Origin: an uncultured bacterium
GTDB taxonomy: Bacteria > Hydrothermota > UBA3072
NCBI GenBank assembly: GCA_964476585.1
Contig: CAYZBF010000002.1
Location: 2,354-66,353 of the forward strand
Length of the DNA: 64,000 nt
Direction: 5' to 3'
This document shows positions 3,335 to 59,593 of this stretch, piece by piece. The notes below the pieces were generated by a model. That model was not told where the DNA came from. It saw only the letters and a list, made by a program, of their open reading frames with translations, and made no database searches. The first letter of the stretch is position 1; every line of letters begins with the position of its first letter. A program made the position numbers and the translations under genes.

Positions 3335-3548
3335 TTTTCTGTTATGCTCCCGTTAAAAAATTTGATAAAATTGCCAAATCTTATTGTTCTCAAGGATTCA
3401 AGGGGTCGAGGGGTCAAAGACAAATTAGTCATAAGTCATTAGTCTTTAGTCATAAGTAGATAAATCATTTTTCATTTTACATTTTGCCTGTCTGCCGTGG
3501 CAACGGCGCAGGTAAACAATTTTCATTTCTTTGCGGCTCCGCTAGATA

Positions 3549-7156: not shown

Positions 7157-8378
7157 TTTTACTTTCCCCTAAAAGGGTAATATTGAAGACTTCTGGCTTG
7201 AAGAAGCGTTCCTGTATATCTTTTACCTCTTCAAATTTAACGCTATTGATCCTTTTTAAGAGTTCTGGAATAGAAACTCTTTTCCCAAGATACATTTCCT
7301 CCTTTACATTCCTACCCATCCTGCTAGCATTATCTTCCATAGAAATCACAATATTTCCCCTTATCCTTTCTTTGGCCACTTCGACCTCTTCTCTCGAGAA
7401 TCTGAGAGAATTAAACAAATCTATAATTGCATCCAAAGTCTTTGATAGTTTATCCTTGTCTGTTGATAAATAAATATAAAAGATACCGGTATCGCTGAAA
7501 AATTCAGGGAAAGCTGAGACATAATACACCAAACCCATCTCTTGACGCAATTTCTGGAATAATCTTGAACTCATCCCCATACCTAAAATGGAAAGCCCAA
7601 TAAGAAAAGGAAACCTTTCTTTATTATTATAGGGAAAACACTTTGAAGATAGGGTAACATATTCATGATTTAACTCAGGCTTTGAAACGATATTGACACG
7701 AGTCTGTTTTTCTGGAAGGAATTCTCTCTCAAATCCTTTACCTTTTCTGTCTCCAAGCTTTTCACTAATTTGAACACATAACTCTCTATGATCCACCTTA
7801 CCCACTGATGTAACGAATATCCTATCAGTAGTATAATTTTTTTGCCAGAAATTTCTAATATCACTAAAAGTAATACTTTGAACTGATGCAGGTGTTCCCA
7901 ATATCGGCGAAGATAGAGGATGGTCCTTTCCAAAAGTGGTGCCCATGGCATAAAAGAAAAGAAGACTTTCTGGAGAATCATAGAAACTTTTGATCTCTTC
8001 CTGTATCACCAAACGTTCCATTTCAATCGAATCTTCCCTGAACAAAGGATTCCTTATCAAATCCAAGAGAACATCTACTGCGAGTGGAAGTTCCTCAGGA
8101 AGGATATGAGCATAGAAAGAGGTCCATTCCCTAGATGTTGAAGCATTCACAATTCCACCTCTGGATTCTATCGCGGTTGATATATCTCTCTCGCTTCTTT
8201 CCTTTGTACCCTTAAATACCGCGTGCTCAATGAAATGACATATACCCTCCTCCTTCTTGCTCTCATCCCTTGATCCTATTTTCACATAAAAACCTATAAT
8301 TGTCGAGAGAGCTGCCGGTATAAATTCTGAAACCACCGTTACTCCTGAAGGAAGGATAGTCTTTTTATAATTAATCAT
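7143..8378 (-). CDS. M16-family zinc metallopeptidase (pitrilysin/insulinase-like)
   Basis: Inverted zinc-binding motif HFIEHAVFKGT (HxxEH). Confidence 0.8.
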   Translation of the reverse strand: MINYKKTILPSGVTVVSEFIPAALSTIIGFYVKIGSRDESKKEEGICHFIEHAVFKGTKERSERDISTAIESRGGIVNASTSREWTSFYAHILPEELPLAVDVLLDLIRNPLFREDSIEMERLVIQEEIKSFYDSPESLLFFYAMGTTFGKDHPLSSPILGTPASVQSITFSDIRNFWQKNYTTDRIFVTSVGKVDHRELCVQISEKLGDRKGKGFEREFLPEKQTRVNIVSKPELNHEYVTLSSKCFPYNNKERFPFLIGLSILGMGMSSRLFQKLRQEMGLVYYVSAFPEFFSDTGIFYIYLSTDKDKLSKTLDAIIDLFNSLRFSREEVEVAKERIRGNIVISMEDNASRMGRNVKEEMYLGKRVSIPELLKRINSVKFEEVKDIQERFFKPEVFNITLLGESKNVSW

Positions 8379-8766
8379 TGAGCCTAATCAATTTTGCCCT
8401 GGCTTCCGCATATACTATGTCTTCAGGATCCTTTAAGAGTGACTTTGCTGTTACGACCTTCCCCCTATCTTCGATCACTTCACCTTCTACTATATATTCA
8501 GCACCTATTTTCACAGGTTTTTTGAATCTGACAGTAATTTCTCCTGTTGCATACTTTCCTCCTAGGGATACCCCTGCGTACACAGCAAGCTCATCAAGAA
8601 CTGTAGCTATTAGTCCACCATGGACCACACCACTGTACCCCTGCATATAAGGCGGAAATTTTATTCTTGCGCGTGAACCCTCTTCATGAAGCTCAATATT
8701 AAGTTGTAAGCCATTTTTGTTTTTCTTTCCACATGCAAAACAATAATCATCTAATTGAAATTCCAT
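8371..8766 (-). CDS. PaaI-type hotdog-fold thioesterase with N-terminal Zn-ribbon
   Basis: CFACGKKN zinc-ribbon-like N-terminus; YSGVVHGGLIATVLDE thioesterase motif. Confidence 0.7.
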   Translation of the reverse strand: MEFQLDDYCFACGKKNKNGLQLNIELHEEGSRARIKFPPYMQGYSGVVHGGLIATVLDELAVYAGVSLGGKYATGEITVRFKKPVKIGAEYIVEGEVIEDRGKVVTAKSLLKDPEDIVYAEARAKLIRLND

Positions 8767-8842
8767 AGGAATATGATAAAGAATTCACTTAATATGTCAA
8801 TGGGGATAGCTGCTCAATAGCTCTAAGCAAAACGAAAAAATT

Positions 8843-8862
8843 AGACGCAGATAAACACAGAA
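8843..8862. repeat. left copy of ~20-nt inverted repeat (agacgcagataaacacag) bracketing the ECF sigma operon
   Basis: Its reverse complement ctgtgtttatctgcgtc matches ctgtgtctatctgcgtt at 10407-10423. Confidence 0.55.
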
Positions 8863-8989
8863 AATATTAGAGCACTAGAGCAAAAATAAAAGAGTTTGTC
8901 AGTTGGTAAGTTAGTCAGTTTTTTTATTGATATAAGTGGTTTAATTGATAATACTTCTTCTTTTTTTAACCTTATCTAAGCAATCTCGA

Positions 8990-9030
8990 ATCTTAACCGT
9001 CCAACACACCAATTCACCAATCGTCTAACT
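8990..9030 (+). promoter_or_regulatory. candidate ECF-type promoter (AAC-N16-CGTC) upstream of the ECF sigma gene
   Basis: ccAACacaccaattcaccaatCGTCtaa lies ~100 nt upstream of the 9125 start. It resembles autoregulated ECF promoters (GAAC-N16/17-CGTC). Confidence 0.3.
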
Positions 9031-9124
9031 AAGAAGATACAAGAAAGCTTGTCAAAATGTTATTTATCAATAATATTTATTGTGAATTTCTGAATATAAT
9101 AGAAAGGAAAGGATACTACAGAAA

Positions 9125-9646
9125 ATGGATGATGATATCTTAATTGAAAAGTGTAAGAAGGGTAATATGGAAGCATATGGAGAATTAGTAAAAAGATACA
9201 TGAAAAAGGCTTATAATGTAGCTCTTTATTTCACAAGAGATCCAAATGATGCATGGGATATATCTCAAGAAGGGTTTTTGAATGCATGGAAGGCAATAAG
9301 GCGATTCAATACAAAAAAGGCATTCTTCCCGTGGTTGTACACAATAATAAAGAACGAATCAATGAAGAAATTTAGAAGAGAAAAAAGAAAAAATAGAGGA
9401 AATCCTATTCCAATAACTGTTATTGAATCACCACATAAGAGATTGGAGAAAATTGAAAGTATAGAAAGGCTTAAAAGAGCTATCTCACGGCTTGATAGAA
9501 AAAAGCAGGAAATAATATATATGAGACATTTTGCAAAGATGAGTTATAATGAAATTGCAGAATCACTGAATATTGCAAAAGGCACTGTAATGTCCCGCCT
9601 ATATTATGCAAGAAAAGCGCTTCTAGAGGAATACAGGAATGGCTGA
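9125..9646 (+). CDS. ECF-subfamily RNA polymerase sigma-70 factor
   Basis: Region 2 (YGELVKRYMKKAYNVALYFTRDPNDAWDISQEGFLNAWK) and region 4 HTH (SYNEIAESLNIAKGTVMSRLYYARKAL). Confidence 0.85.
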   Translation: MDDDILIEKCKKGNMEAYGELVKRYMKKAYNVALYFTRDPNDAWDISQEGFLNAWKAIRRFNTKKAFFPWLYTIIKNESMKKFRREKRKNRGNPIPITVIESPHKRLEKIESIERLKRAISRLDRKKQEIIYMRHFAKMSYNEIAESLNIAKGTVMSRLYYARKALLEEYRNG

Positions 9647-10079
9647 TTTAGATACCCTTATAAATAAGTACCTTGATAAAGAATTATCCAAAAAGGAAAA
9701 AGAAGAACTTCAGAATCGTGTCGAAAAAGACAAAAAATTAAAGAAAGAATTAAAGGAATTGGACGAAATGAGGGAGGTGATTTCAATGCTAAAACCAAAG
9801 GATCCGGATAAAGAATGGGAGAGATACTGGAGCAATCTTTATAATCGCCTTGAAAGAGGTATTGGCTGGATAATAACATCAATCGGAGCAATACTCTTGC
9901 TAACATTCGCTGGATTTCAACTAGTGAAGGAACTCATAAAAGACCCGGAACTCGCCCTTTATGCAAAGATTGGTATAATAGCGTTGATGATAGGTTTTGT
10001 AATCCTTTTTGTCTCTGTAGTGCGGGAAAGAATCTTTATGGGAAAATCGGATAAATATTCAAAGGAGGTAAAACGATGA
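9639..10079 (+). CDS. putative membrane-anchored anti-sigma factor
   Basis: Overlaps the sigma gene stop (ATGGCTGA). It has a charged N-terminal coiled region followed by two TM helices, which is the usual arrangement for an ECF partner. Confidence 0.5.
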   Translation: MADLDTLINKYLDKELSKKEKEELQNRVEKDKKLKKELKELDEMREVISMLKPKDPDKEWERYWSNLYNRLERGIGWIITSIGAILLLTFAGFQLVKELIKDPELALYAKIGIIALMIGFVILFVSVVRERIFMGKSDKYSKEVKR

Positions 10080-10390
10080 TACTTTCAACATCTCATACTG
10101 TGCCAGGGAAAGAAATTAAGGAAACTCTTGGCATTGTAAAAGGTAATACGGTTAGAGCGAGACATATAGGTAGAGATATTATGGCTGGTTTAAGAAATAT
10201 AGTGGGTGGAGAGATAACTGAATATACAAAAATGCTTGCTGAATCAAGAGAGCAGTCAATCGATAGAATGATAGAAGAAGCAGAATCACTGGGTGCAGAT
10301 GCTATAGTAGGTATTCGTTTTGTAACCTCATCGGTTATGCAGCGTGCATCTGAATTACTCGCTTACGGAACAGCAATAAAGCTGAAATAG
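10076..10390 (+). CDS. YbjQ/UPF0145 (DUF74) family protein
   Basis: Full-length similarity to the YbjQ family (GEITEYTKMLAESREQSIDRMIEEAESLGADAIVGIRF). Overlaps the upstream gene (ATGA). Confidence 0.8.
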   Translation: MILSTSHTVPGKEIKETLGIVKGNTVRARHIGRDIMAGLRNIVGGEITEYTKMLAESREQSIDRMIEEAESLGADAIVGIRFVTSSVMQRASELLAYGTAIKLK

Positions 10391-10402
10391 TTAAATACAC
10401 TT

Positions 10403-10432
10403 ATCTGTGTCTATCTGCGTTCATCTGCGGCC
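10403..10432. repeat. right copy of inverted repeat, with three tandem ~10-nt ATCTGYG units
   Basis: ttATCTGTGtcTATCTGCGttCATCTGCGg lies immediately after the ybjQ stop. Confidence 0.55.
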
Positions 10433-10445
10433 AAATTTGTTAAAT

Positions 10446-11321
10446 CTATTCAAATAATGCCTGTACAAAATCCTCTGCGTTAAATGGTATCAAATCTTCT
10501 AACTCCTCACCTATACCCAAAAAACGGATTGGTATATCTAATTCTTCTACAATTGCAATTACCATTCCTCCTTTTGCAGTACCATCAAGTTTAGCAAGAG
10601 CAACACCAGTAATCCCAATAGCATCATTAAAATTCTTAGCCTGTTGCAGAGTATTCCCACCTATATTAGCATCAATCACAAGGATTGTTTCATGTGGTAG
10701 ATCCTCTCTCTTTTTTGAAAGAACCCTCTTTATTTTCTTCATTTCCTCCATAAGATTCCTCTTGGTATGGAGTCTTCCCGCTGTATCAATTAAAAGATAA
10801 TCCATACCCCTCGCCATAGCTGCATCAACGGCATCAAATGCAACAGAAGCTGGATCTGCTCCATAATGAGATTCCACAACTTCTACCCCAATCCTTTTCC
10901 CCCATTCTTTCAGTTGTTCTCCTGCTCCTGTTCGATATGTATCCGCACATGCGAAAATAACCTTATTCCCCCCCTCCTTAAGCATATATCCTCTTTTCCC
11001 TATGGTTGTGGTCTTCCCAACGCCATTAACCCCAACATATAGTTCAACAATAGAGGGCTTTCCATCCAGACTTTTATTCGGTTGTTTATTAAGGATATCA
11101 ATCAGTTCTTTTTGAATTCGAGGATAGTACTCTTGAGGCCCTACACTCTCAAGAACATCAATCAACCTTTTCACCGTAAAAAGCCCCAAATCCGCCTGAA
11201 CCAGGAGATCTTCTATATCAAATAAAAGATCCGGATCACGCCTTCCGATTAGATTTCTTATCTTCTTGCTAAAACTACTCCTTGTCTTCTTTAGAGCCTC
11301 GCGAAGCCCCATACTCCGCAA
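10446..11321 (-). CDS. ftsY: signal recognition particle receptor FtsY (NG domain only)
   Basis: GVNGVGKTTTIGK P-loop, DTAGR motif and no M domain. The likely true start is at MGLREALKKTRSS (approx 11312). Confidence 0.85.
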   Translation of the reverse strand: MRSMGLREALKKTRSSFSKKIRNLIGRRDPDLLFDIEDLLVQADLGLFTVKRLIDVLESVGPQEYYPRIQKELIDILNKQPNKSLDGKPSIVELYVGVNGVGKTTTIGKRGYMLKEGGNKVIFACADTYRTGAGEQLKEWGKRIGVEVVESHYGADPASVAFDAVDAAMARGMDYLLIDTAGRLHTKRNLMEEMKKIKRVLSKKREDLPHETILVIDANIGGNTLQQAKNFNDAIGITGVALAKLDGTAKGGMVIAIVEELDIPIRFLGIGEELEDLIPFNAEDFVQALFE

Positions 11322-16880: not shown

Positions 16881-18203
16881 ATGTCAGCAATAATACTTCT
16901 TTTAACCGCAACGCTCTCTGCCTTGCTACCTGATGCAGTTACACTCCATGAGAAAATGATAAGAGAAAAAGAGATTTCTCTTCCTTATGGTGTATTACCT
17001 TTATACAGAGGAAAAGATGGGATTACTGTTTCTCTATATTCTATAGCAGACACTGTAAAATACACTCAACTTAGCTCTATTATGCAATACCAAAAAAATG
17101 GATGGGGGTTTAGTTTTGCCCCACTCCTTCGTAAAGGCTCCGCGCATATCTACCCGACTCGAGAGAAATTCGGAGTCTATCCGGATGTCAGTCGAGGTTC
17201 GGTCTTCTATAAGAACAATAATTTGAACTTCTCCATTGGGAAAGATATCTTCTCCATAGGAGGGTCATTTGAACACAATCCCATCCTATCCCCAAATATC
17301 CCCTTGAATTATGCACGATTCATCTATAGCAATAATAGATTTTCTTTTATGCATCTCATAGCTAGGCTCGGTGACTACACAGGCATAGAAAAGATATGGG
17401 CAGGTGGCTCCACATCTGATACAACTACATTCCAGAGATATCTTGGTATACACCGCCTGGAATTTAAACCAACAAGATGGTTAGGAATTTCCTTTAGTGA
17501 AATTATTTTAATTGGTGGAGAGTCTACAGGATTTCCCTTTGAGCTGTTTTCACCACTCACGATATATTATGTGGAACAATTTAATCAGAAAAGGAACGTA
17601 AATATATTCTGGAATATAGATGCAAAGGCAATCTGGAATGATTTCCTCCTATATTTTGATCTCTTTATAGATGACTTCCAGTATGAAGCAGATCCATGGA
17701 AAGAACCAAACCATATAGGGATCTATCTCGGGATCCAGAGAGTTGACCTTATTAGAGAAGGTTCTATTCTCTTGCTTTCTTACAACCTTATGAGTAGATG
17801 GTCTTACTGTAATCTAATTGTATGGCAGAGATATACCGATAGAGAATTTCCCTTAGGTGCACCCCTTGGAAATGATTATGATCGACTTTACCTGCTAGCG
17901 CTCTACCCTTTATCCCCCTTCAAAACCGGGCTCGAATTCTCCTTTACGCGTAAAGGAGAAAATTCAATAGATGCACCATGGCCGGTAAATTCAACTTATG
18001 GTCCAGCCCCTAATAATCAATTTAATGGTACGAATTTCCTATCAGGAATAGTCGAAAAACGATTCAGTCTTTCTCCAATCTTTAGATATAAGGACATTCT
18101 TAATCTCAAAGCAGGATTCTACTATATTCAAAATTACCAGCACCAAGAAGGCACCACTAAAACCGAACCACTATTAGAGCTTAAAATTAAATACCATATA
18201 TAG
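16881..18203 (+). CDS. hypothetical secreted, aromatic-rich, probable outer-membrane protein
   Basis: N-terminal signal peptide. Frequent Y/F/W and alternating beta-like segments. No defining motif recognised. Confidence 0.4.
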   Translation: MSAIILLLTATLSALLPDAVTLHEKMIREKEISLPYGVLPLYRGKDGITVSLYSIADTVKYTQLSSIMQYQKNGWGFSFAPLLRKGSAHIYPTREKFGVYPDVSRGSVFYKNNNLNFSIGKDIFSIGGSFEHNPILSPNIPLNYARFIYSNNRFSFMHLIARLGDYTGIEKIWAGGSTSDTTTFQRYLGIHRLEFKPTRWLGISFSEIILIGGESTGFPFELFSPLTIYYVEQFNQKRNVNIFWNIDAKAIWNDFLLYFDLFIDDFQYEADPWKEPNHIGIYLGIQRVDLIREGSILLLSYNLMSRWSYCNLIVWQRYTDREFPLGAPLGNDYDRLYLLALYPLSPFKTGLEFSFTRKGENSIDAPWPVNSTYGPAPNNQFNGTNFLSGIVEKRFSLSPIFRYKDILNLKAGFYYIQNYQHQEGTTKTEPLLELKIKYHI

Positions 18204-18204
18204 G

Positions 18205-18295
18205 GATTGGGTCTTAGGTTTTAGGTCTTGGGTTTAAATTCTTATATTGGGAAGGGGGAAACTAATACCCAATGCCTAACACCTAAAACCTAATC
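18205..18295. repeat. 91-nt imperfect palindrome (29-nt arms, 24/29 complementary) that fills the convergent intergenic gap exactly; candidate bidirectional terminator or REP/MITE-like element
   Basis: gattgggtcttaggttttaggtcttgggt pairs with acccaatgcctaacacctaaaacctaatc. There is an inner inverted repeat tattggg/cccaata. Confidence 0.6.
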
Positions 18296-19265
18296 ACCAG
18301 ATTAACAATTTTTCGCAAACATACTTATCCAGAGGTTCGGCTGTTATCACCTTGTAGTCTGGCAACTGAACCTTAGCCGGACCATTTCCTGCATACCTTG
18401 CAAGAATCCTTGAAGCAAGAGAAAAATCATCTTCTTCGGTGATCTCAATCTGTCTTTCAAAATCTTCAGCGCAGGGAAATAGTATACCAGTAGGACCCTT
18501 TTTATCCACCAGTTCAAAAAGATTGGAACCAAACTGCCTTAGTATCTCCCCCTCTTCTTGATTACGGCTTACGATAAAAAGAGACTTATTCAGATGGAAG
18601 TGGCGCCCAATTCTGACAAAATTTATGTGTGCCTCATCAATATCACATTCCTTAATTGCTGTATAGAGACGTTTAGAAAAAACCTCATTAGTCAAAATAC
18701 AGCCTCCTTCAGGTGAACCATATTTGATTATCCCGAATTTCTCTGCTAATTCCATTTGCACTTTCCTACTCCTGCCAGAAATTCCATAGAGTTTTTCCCG
18801 GTTTATTATACCCACTCTTTCCATATGAGTAGGCTTTAGTAATTTTGCTGAAAGGGGTCTGAGAGTAAGGTCGCCGAGTTTTGTCAATTTATTAACGCTC
18901 TGAAGACTCTTTTTTGTCTGAGATTTTGGCCTCTGCCCCAGAACCTCCCCTGTAACCAAAAATAATCCCCCTATCTCTCTCATATACCTGTATGCCTCCT
19001 TTATCATTAAAGCATGGCAATCGATACAGGGGTTCATTCCCCTTCCATATCCATATTCTGGATGTAGTAAAATCTCGAAATGTTTATGAGAGATATCAAT
19101 AGTTATCAGATTTAAGCCGTTTGCCAGAGCATTTTTGGAAGCTTTTTCATTATCAAAGAAATAGCTTACAAATGTAACAGGTATAACTTCTAAACCTTGT
19201 TCCTGAACTATTTTGACAGCGAGTAATGAATCCAGTCCCCCCGAGAAAAGAGCTACTGCCTTCAT
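18294..19265 (-). CDS. PP-loop ATP pyrophosphatase, ThiI/LarE-like adenylyltransferase domain without THUMP
   Basis: SGGLDS PP-loop at residue 8; CIDCH cysteine pair; ThiI-like LFLVTGEVLGQRPKSQT motif; ~180-aa C-terminal extension that I could not assign. Confidence 0.5.
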   Translation of the reverse strand: MKAVALFSGGLDSLLAVKIVQEQGLEVIPVTFVSYFFDNEKASKNALANGLNLITIDISHKHFEILLHPEYGYGRGMNPCIDCHALMIKEAYRYMREIGGLFLVTGEVLGQRPKSQTKKSLQSVNKLTKLGDLTLRPLSAKLLKPTHMERVGIINREKLYGISGRSRKVQMELAEKFGIIKYGSPEGGCILTNEVFSKRLYTAIKECDIDEAHINFVRIGRHFHLNKSLFIVSRNQEEGEILRQFGSNLFELVDKKGPTGILFPCAEDFERQIEITEEDDFSLASRILARYAGNGPAKVQLPDYKVITAEPLDKYVCEKLLIW

Positions 19266-58771: not shown

Positions 58772-58896
58772 TACTCTGTTGTCACAGAGGAATTGGTTAA
58801 ATAGTTAAGTAGTCAAATAGTTAAATAAAACAACTGACAGTTATTTAAAACAATTCAACTATTCAACAATTTAACTACTAAACTTTATGCATTCTC

Positions 58897-59325: not shown

Positions 59326-59593
59326 ACCTCCTTTTTGATAACCCTATCTGAACCATCCCAGTTGTCAAGGGGCAAACACAGTGAATGTGTAAATGAGTAG
59401 ATGAGTGGAATGGTATATGGGTGGATGAGATAAACGACCGGGGACGGAAGACGGAGGCATAGTTAATTTGTTAATTGGTAAATTGTTGATTAGTTATGCC
59501 CTCAAATCTTCCCTAATTAACTATTTGACTATTTTACTAATTAACTTTGCGTTAGAAAAAAATAAGATTATTTACAAGATTTACAGTTTGGGG

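Follow-up and report, generated by a model that had tools for sequence, protein, structure and literature searches.

Does a three-gene operon bracketed by inverted repeats represent the footprint of a mobilised cassette? The question arises in a 64,000-nucleotide stretch of an uncultured Hydrothermota bacterium (contig CAYZBF010000002.1, positions 2,354 to 66,353; the whole stretch is called the window here), where two copies of a ~20-nt repeat flank an operon encoding an extracytoplasmic function (ECF) sigma factor, a membrane anti-sigma-like protein and a YbjQ protein. The preliminary description of this locus offered three possibilities: a mobilised cassette, two sites for one DNA-binding protein, or a terminator-associated repeat. 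Judging by comparative sequence analysis, the repeats do not bound a mobile gene cassette; they appear to be two members of one repeat family that face opposite ways in adjacent spacers, and each is a short tandem array:

8843 to 8864, minus strand: left array, two decamer units, TTTTCTGTGTT TATCTGCGTC T on that strand.
10402 to 10436, plus strand: right array, three decamer units, TATCTGTGTC TATCTGCGTT CATCTGCGGC, followed by the conserved outer flank CAAAT.

The left string, agacgcagataaacacag, lies at 8843–8860 as first described; the right string, ctgtgtctatctgcgtt, was placed at 10407–10423 directly after the ybjQ stop codon but occupies 10405–10421, 2 nt away, and begins 14 nt past that stop (10390). 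The inversion itself is real. A repeat search paired 20-nt arms at 8845–8864 and 10401–10420 that are complementary at 18/20 positions (90%) across 1536 nt, and none of 1,000 dinucleotide-preserving shuffles of the intergenic regions on either side of the operon (358 and 55 nt) did as well, the best inverted match of 17/20 being reached twice. The tandem structure of the right copy was also borne out, with three 10-nt units at 10402–10431 (tATCTGtGtc, tATCTGcGtt and cATCTGcGgc), and the left arm proved to be likewise tandem, with two units (ACGCAGATAA ACACAGAAAA) in the opposite orientation. The 16-mer occurs four times in the window when up to three mismatches are allowed, versus 0.49 expected. 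A weight matrix trained only on units from loci outside the window, and run over both strands of all 64 kb, ranked the right array first (26.1 bits) and the left array second (24.9 bits), ahead of sites scoring 18.5 bits (in coding sequence) and 12.9 bits. Because the two arms take the top two ranks, the ATCTGYG motif is rare in the window and not a generic repeat.

We gathered about 30 orthologous loci by exact-protein look-ups and one metagenome scan (sigma-factor identity 56–78%; the homologs bear candidate division WOR-3 names; individual loci are given L numbers). Together with the copies found elsewhere, they define the family unit as a decamer (NRACRCAGAT, or ATCTGYGTYN on the other strand) comprising a near-invariant 7-bp core, ATCTGYG (CRCAGAT), and a 3-nt variable spacer. 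Units run head to tail in 2–4 copies, with three in 122 of 232 arrays, and recur every 10 bp, or every 9 bp in one WOR-3 subclade. The consensus of 43 units is WWATCTGYGTYY, and the last unit often ends in GG or GTCC before a run of A or T. Arrays are strongly intergenic: tandem CRCAGA pairs (at most one mismatch, spacing 9–10; window plus 23 WOR-3 loci) numbered 47 in 24.9 kb of intergenic DNA versus 11 in 196 kb of coding DNA, a roughly 34-fold enrichment. Of the 18 WOR-3 clusters with known context, 8 are in gaps between divergent genes, 4 between convergent and 6 between co-directional ones. Arrays stand alone or form a compact palindrome, in which a CRCAGAT array is followed after 0–250 nt by an ATCTGYG array and the outer ends, (G)GCC, are bordered by T-rich and A-rich runs. 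This polarity is fixed: 42 pairs in the CRCAGAT-then-ATCTGYG order have gaps below 250 nt (19 of them below 20 nt), and no pair in the reverse order is closer than 400 nt. Arms within one element are about 84% complementary overall, and perfectly or near-perfectly so in several (L056, L161 and L191); past the outer unit, complementarity extends only 2–3 nt (GC, AAC or ATC) before the T-rich and A-rich runs begin. An open reading frame (ORF) within the 574-nt element of L175 matched nothing in Pfam or PHROG, no Rfam family matched the arrays (generic hairpin matches only, far below threshold), and a literature search by sequence string and topic found no description of such a family.

The array motif belongs to a dispersed family that reaches across several phyla. 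An IMG/VR scan for CGCAGATRAACRCAGAT returned exact 17-mers in 63 loci with GC contents of 38–68%, many with several copies per contig, and the capsid, Mu-type portal and tape-measure genes of these loci mark them as phages. A search of GTDB representatives for FtsY, intended to find close relatives, was useless for synteny (best match 49% identity) and incidentally yielded a Verrucomicrobia metagenome-assembled genome with six arrays in 8 kb (L054) and a Wenzhouxiangellaceae chromosome with a perfect 35-nt inverted pair around 195 nt (L056), neither of them selected by an array search. BLAST against plasmids found copies in two Skermanella species, Anabaena cylindrica, Dolichospermum and Sphaerospermopsis, and an ATTTGCG variant in six places in Ca. 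Thiodictyon syntrophicum. The right arm with its CAAAT flank (10401–10436) is identical at 32/36 positions to the copy on Skermanella mucosa pSM-2, where local GC is 70%, and at 32/36 positions to that on Anabaena cylindrica pANACY.02. The known range thus covers WOR-3, a Verrucomicrobia genome, Alpha- and Gammaproteobacteria, Nostocales plasmids and many phage contigs; E. coli genomes (28 Gb), cultured phages (50,697 records) and unrelated ECF-sigma loci (170 kb) gave no match. In several WOR-3 lineages an A run comes after the array and leads into a G-rich block, GGGAGGAGGGG or GTGGGGTGGTGGGG (L066 1500–1560, L066 3660–3715, L082 3715–3756 and L122 3880–3905), and the complementary CCCTTCCTCCC follows the array on Skermanella pSM-2.

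The genes and promoters around the two arrays in the window are these:

8371 to 8766, minus strand: 4HBT thioesterase gene, first gene of a leftward operon (Pfam).
8773 to 8800, minus strand: sigma-70-type promoter of the thioesterase operon, TTGACA-N16-TATCAT, 11/12 match.
9003 to 9030, plus strand: tentative feature, a CA-rich stretch ending in CCAACACACCAATTCACCAATCGTCTAAC, weak alignment.
9049 to 9077, plus strand: probable sigma-70-type promoter of the sigma operon, TTGTCA-N16/17-TAATAT, inside the bracketed segment.
9125 to 10390, plus strand: three-gene operon (sigma, anti-sigma-like, YbjQ).
9125 to 9646, plus strand: ECF sigma factor gene (Pfam).
9639 to 10079, plus strand: membrane anti-sigma-like protein gene (Pfam; in the anti-sigma position).
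10076 to 10390, plus strand: YbjQ gene (Pfam).
10446 to 11321, minus strand: ftsY, convergent with ybjQ (Pfam).

The minus strand of the left array is the sense strand of the thioesterase gene, whose −35 hexamer lies 43 nt downstream, and the right array fills most of the 55-nt convergent spacer between ybjQ and ftsY. An independent assembly of the region has the identical arrangement.

Comparison of the orthologous loci indicated that the two arms have separate histories. The sigma, anti-sigma-like and ybjQ genes stay together in every locus, in several settings: the window, L060, L069 and L125 have the order thioesterase, cassette, ftsY, as does L066, where a peptidase gene is interposed; an alcohol-dehydrogenase-like gene lies to the left in L065 and L075; and a Trm112-like gene to the left with a GGDEF gene to the right in L071 and L077–L082. 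Contig ends leave one flank visible in L057 and L063 (the thioesterase side) and in L073 (the ftsY side). In the window, L057, L063, L060 and L066, the left array can be aligned ahead of the promoter of the thioesterase gene (CCATTGACA...TATCAT), in surroundings that are otherwise not alignable across these five lineages. In L066 the thioesterase gene is 2.5 kb from the cassette, with the peptidase gene between them, and the left array is still at the thioesterase gene. A search with the thioesterase also recovered three loci (L122–124) in which tyrS, an epimerase gene, a glycosyltransferase gene, ftsY and the thioesterase operon stand in succession on one strand with no cassette; in their 252-nt ftsY–thioesterase spacer a terminator hairpin for ftsY comes first, followed by a three-unit array, AACAGTGTCT ATCTGTGTTA ATCAATGTCT, ahead of the promoter of the thioesterase operon. 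Since the left arm is present in both L066 and the cassette-less loci, it is a feature of the thioesterase promoter region, with or without an adjacent sigma cassette. The spacer between ybjQ and ftsY has no right array in L057, L060/61, L073, L125, L075 and L069, all of which hold the operon at an equivalent position, and L069 and L075 lack the left array as well. Length and content of that spacer differ in every lineage, from 5 nt to more than 300 nt, and the right array is a recent, lineage-specific half element within it. An 86-nt, 97% inverted copy of the sigma upstream region at the contig start of L081 (1–102 and 4308–4408) is a possible assembly artefact and was not used.

The thioesterase promoter is mostly invariant over six lineages, its −35 hexamer fully so, and the sigma-operon promoter is kept in all orthologous loci. 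The Trm112-like and sigma promoters are separated by a 310–360-nt block with arrays in L079, L082 and L083 but by 6–8 nt in L080 and L071, suggesting that the sigma promoter works without arrays. This difference, together with L090 and L087, whose flanks are 98% identical and which differ by an array-bearing segment, argues that arrays are gained and lost fast. Several other features of the promoter regions were observed. The thioesterase −10 hexamer ends 6 nt ahead of the annotated ATG (8766–8800, minus strand), so that either the mRNA is leaderless or the start is mis-called. Upstream of the sigma operon's sigma-70-type promoter, an ECF-type-promoter-like CCAAC-N16-CGTCTAA (9003–9028, plus strand) aligns gap-free with CCAAT-N16-CGTATAA in L057 and is absent from L063 and L060. 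A box, TTGAATAAA (TGAATATAA in the window, 9084–9100), lies between the sigma-promoter −10 and the ribosome-binding site in every ortholog. The CA-rich stretch at 9003–9030 sits where L060, L073 and L125 have a partner array, ATCAGTGTCT, 27–33 nt upstream of the sigma −35; we considered ATCGTCTAAC at 9019–9028 as a decayed partner of the left arm and set it aside because the alignment is too weak.

We hypothesize, with moderate confidence, that the arrays are helically phased putative binding sites for a sequence-specific protein, carried on fast-turnover, horizontally shared repeats. On this explanation the two window arms are independent copies of one dispersed intergenic repeat family and not the ends of a unit with the sigma operon inside, and the arrays probably act on DNA as head-to-tail, helically phased sites; the putative binder could be a regulator or the family's own recombinase, and intergenic arrays would be quickly gained and lost and passed horizontally among bacteria, plasmids and phages. 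The earlier suggestion of two sites for one DNA-binding protein fits broadly, given phased direct repeats with conserved cores; any looping of the locus is putative, and the arms differ in evolutionary history. A close parallel is with operators of the OmpR/PhoB family, which consist of tandem decamer or 11-bp boxes such as the TorR tor boxes (CTGTTCATAT, four copies) and the Pho boxes. Like these operators, which have a 10–11-bp period, the arrays are direct repeats with a conserved core: 2–4 head-to-tail copies of a 7-bp core plus short spacer, one helical turn apart, some of them just upstream of a −35 hexamer (the window thioesterase; cyanobacterial plasmids). Unlike them, arrays also occur as inverted pairs, in convergent spacers and between phage cistrons, and the same array sequence recurs across phyla, which is atypical of one regulon; any regulator is putative. 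As to operator position, the left arm lies upstream of a promoter in six lineages; the spacer of the right arm is a convergent one, and this arm is not kept in orthologs.

Three settings offer pointers to a function. On two homologous conjugative Nostocales plasmids, a three-unit array lies 11 nt upstream of TTGAYA-N17-TATTAA, and the six differences between the two arrays all fall at Y or spacer positions, leaving the core ATCTG-G intact; a protein-binding site would be expected to vary in this core-sparing way. Recognition on DNA is also favoured by the lack of G–U bias between palindrome arms, of significant RNA folds in the window arms and of a matching Rfam family. The WOR-3 arrays that precede the thioesterase, GGDEF and sigma promoters carry ATCTGYG on the sense strand. 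Nearly every gene of phages L141 and L163 is preceded by four GAACGCRGAT units, then CGGAAGGA and the start codon, and across phage loci the sense strand of lone arrays close to a gene start reads CRCAGAT in 28 cases versus 9, just before the ribosome-binding site. Units and CGGAAGGA together occupy almost all intercistronic gaps in L141 (2000–8400) and L163 (4780–8175). Read in frame, this phage array forms a mini-ORF, ATG AAC GCA GAT GAA CGC AGA TGA; a coding role for the array (MNADERR and stop) was rejected, the reading not being conserved in WOR-3 copies. On pANACY.02 (L195, 2665–4029), the array and promoter lie about 640 nt from the divergent two-component system rppA/rppB, whose OmpR-type regulator may be a candidate binder, although the proximity is perhaps coincidence.

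Several observations weigh against the protein-binding hypothesis. Orientation is inconsistent: arrays of WOR-3 and of the cyanobacterial plasmids have ATCTGYG directed at promoters, and lone arrays of phages mostly have CRCAGAT on the sense strand. Because these settings disagree, no single simple model yet fits all cases. Arrays also occupy convergent spacers that are expected to be promoter-free, including that of the right arm (4 of 18 WOR-3 clusters), and there are only two copies in 64 kb of this genome. Clustering the proteins of array-bearing phage loci gave no binder candidate; among the 63 loci, nothing was shared beyond portal/terminase-type families in 6. The window pair, moreover, has the polarity of the canonical palindrome, compatible, in this genome alone, with a single split element.

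A broader version of the hypothesis, which we advance tentatively, makes the decamer array a hitherto undescribed cis-element that at least four bacterial phyla, their plasmids and many phages have in common in its nucleotide sequence, with a single DNA- or RNA-binding protein, itself spread horizontally, recognising it. Use of the element would then be modular, lone before promoters and cistrons and as an inverted pair between genes; this is part of the same tentative proposal.

The main rival of the protein-binding hypothesis is that the arrays are the ends of a small, non-autonomous, selfish palindromic repeat with no host role, of which the window arms would be decayed or half copies. We regard this as possible but on balance unlikely. 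Repetitive extragenic palindromic (REP) sequences, the bacterial interspersed mosaic elements (BIMEs) built from them, and miniature inverted-repeat transposable elements (MITEs) such as Correia elements are short intergenic palindromic repeats, and the arrays resemble them in being short, non-coding, intergenic and palindromic, in their conserved termini and fast gain and loss, and in reaching high copy numbers in some genomes. The fixed polarity and conserved termini of the compact inverted pairs speak for such an element, as do arms that match best within their own element (perfectly in L056 and L161, near-perfectly in L191), presence or absence that differs between close relatives, occurrence in every type of intergenic region, and a sporadic distribution across phyla and on phages and plasmids but not in E. 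coli. However, these arms are phased decamers conserved at the nucleotide level across phyla and phages, 28 elements have no target-site duplication at any offset, and no transposase or REP-associated tyrosine transposase (RAYT) gene lies in or beside any copy. The internal sequence is unconserved and ranges from a few nucleotides to about 250 nt. The window arms do not fold as REP or BIME hairpin units do, and only paired arrays elsewhere would. As for copy number, the 64 kb of the window hold two copies, and no RAYT gene was seen in any locus. Lone arrays are also biased in orientation, standing one way round before nearly every gene of L141 and L163 and showing a 3:1 bias in phages overall; the left array has been retained at one promoter across lineages; and conservation between the two cyanobacterial plasmids is confined to core positions.

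Other repeats were also noted. A 77-nt insertion with hairpin ends (ACCCCATGAAATA ... TATTTCACGGGGT) lies beside the left array in L063 (3330–3430) and L064 and is absent from the close relative L057. The cassette spacers of L066–L068 hold several copies of another family, REP-like hairpins ending in CCCCTAC, for example GTAGAGGCAATTCATGAATTGCCTCTAC. The window itself has long imperfect intergenic hairpins (18203–18298, 58794–58878 and 59457–59550; also 3424–3485 and 8893–8920) made of degenerate 7–8-nt tandem units, with a GT-rich arm opposite a CA-rich arm and fold z-scores of −3.6 to −5.7; hairpins of like style occur in L073 and L125 (ybjQ–ftsY gap) and in L090 (upstream of sigma). These hairpins are similar to the cyanobacterial STRRs, which are short tandemly repeated heptamers, and may be candidate terminators. 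The decamer arrays share with STRRs a short, tandem, intergenic character, but differ in their period of 10 rather than 7, their defined polarity and termini, and their cross-phylum identity.

Could a single regulator, bound at both arrays, loop or insulate the sigma operon, for example by blocking read-through from the ftsY and thioesterase sides? Both arms are the top two window matches to one matrix, the convergent ybjQ/ftsY spacer has no intrinsic terminator, and arrays flank the cassette in several lineages. The idea is nevertheless improbable: the right site is not kept in the closest relatives, the compact L069 locus works with neither site, the left site tracks the thioesterase gene rather than the cassette, and intergenic regions adjoining the cassette are only modestly enriched in arrays (11/30 vs 17/83).

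A role at the RNA level, as sites for an RNA-binding protein, a processing hairpin or pairing of the 5′ and 3′ ends of the operon mRNA, is very unlikely. The intercistronic phage arrays, on the sense strand right before the ribosome-binding site, would suit it, and paired arrays would give stems of about 30 bp, albeit with only generic hairpin matches in Rfam and no family of their own. Neither window arm, however, folds better than shuffled sequence (z −0.14 to 0.53), and the operon transcript is unlikely to include the left arm, since the conserved sigma promoter is downstream of it. Where palindrome arms mismatch, there is no G–U bias with respect to the direction of flanking genes (41 GT, 60 AC), evidence against selection for an RNA hairpin. 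The suggestion of a terminator-associated repeat fell for a related reason, as neither arm has a hairpin or a significant fold, and a scan for a GC-rich hairpin with a U tract found none at either arm.

The mobilised cassette that prompted the question fares no better, and we consider it highly improbable. It would make the sigma operon the cargo of an element that the arrays serve as terminal inverted repeats or as integrase arm-type sites. Inverted arms suited to such termini are present, at 18/20 in the window and 27–35 nt in canonical family members, and the window pair has the canonical polarity, a CRCAGAT array and then an ATCTGYG array. Within WOR-3 the cassette occurs in three or more genomic contexts, one ftsY–thioesterase site is empty (L122–124), arrays also flank the cassette on both sides in L066, L079 and L082, and a 5-nt AAATT is found on both outer flanks. 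Against this, the empty site retains the left array, in L060 the spacer that holds the left array also holds, at a distance of 70 nt, an array that partners it, and the orthologous operons described above lack the right arm in six lineages and either arm in two of these, which is an outcome that the preliminary description had named as refuting the idea. The AAATT is AT-only at fuzzy repeat boundaries, and a family-wide test on 28 elements found no excess of target-site duplications at any offset or length. All 42 close neighbour pairs of canonical polarity span less than 250 nt and only four are longer (273 and 574 nt, and about 3.5 kb twice); no neighbouring pair encloses a recognisable recombinase. 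No transposase or recombinase gene was found in window positions 0–24 kb, or within about 9 kb on either side of the locus, and the arrangement is the same in two independent assemblies.

Multi-site transposon ends and integrase arm-type arrays, namely Mu L1–L3/R1–R3, the Tn7 TnsB sites and lambda P′1–P′3, are to our knowledge the sole architecture that would make the bracketed operon cargo. The likeness lies in two to four tandem protein-binding repeats on each inverted side, binding to the present arrays being putative. The arrays differ in having units of 10 bp rather than about 20 bp, sides typically 0–250 nt apart with no genes between them, many copies per phage genome, no nearby recombinase and a left site that persists at the empty site. 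An invertible segment was likewise rejected, the operon having one orientation in all lineages and both assemblies with no recombinase, and the sigma promoter lying inside the segment, so that inversion would not switch it.

Known sites were dismissed more simply: for an ECF sigma promoter (AAC-containing −35 and CGT-type −10, 16–17 nt apart), the left arm offers no AAC suitably spaced from its CGTC and the right arm points into the ftsY 3′ end, sigma-54 spacings misfit (one sigma-54-like match, in L081, is not general), and matches to DnaA box, IHF, Fur, LexA, CsrA and consensus-pause sequences are partial or trivial only.

For this locus the outcome is negative: the ECF sigma operon is an ordinary chromosomal operon, and its flanking repeats are uninformative about mobility. 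For the family, a 30–36-nt module of phased decamers is near-unchanged between a WOR-3 genome at 38% GC, an alphaproteobacterial plasmid at 70% GC, cyanobacterial plasmids and diverse phages. Such conservation usually signals a specific protein partner or a broad-host-range mobile element. With cultured carriers in Anabaena cylindrica PCC 7122 and Skermanella, the question is directly testable.

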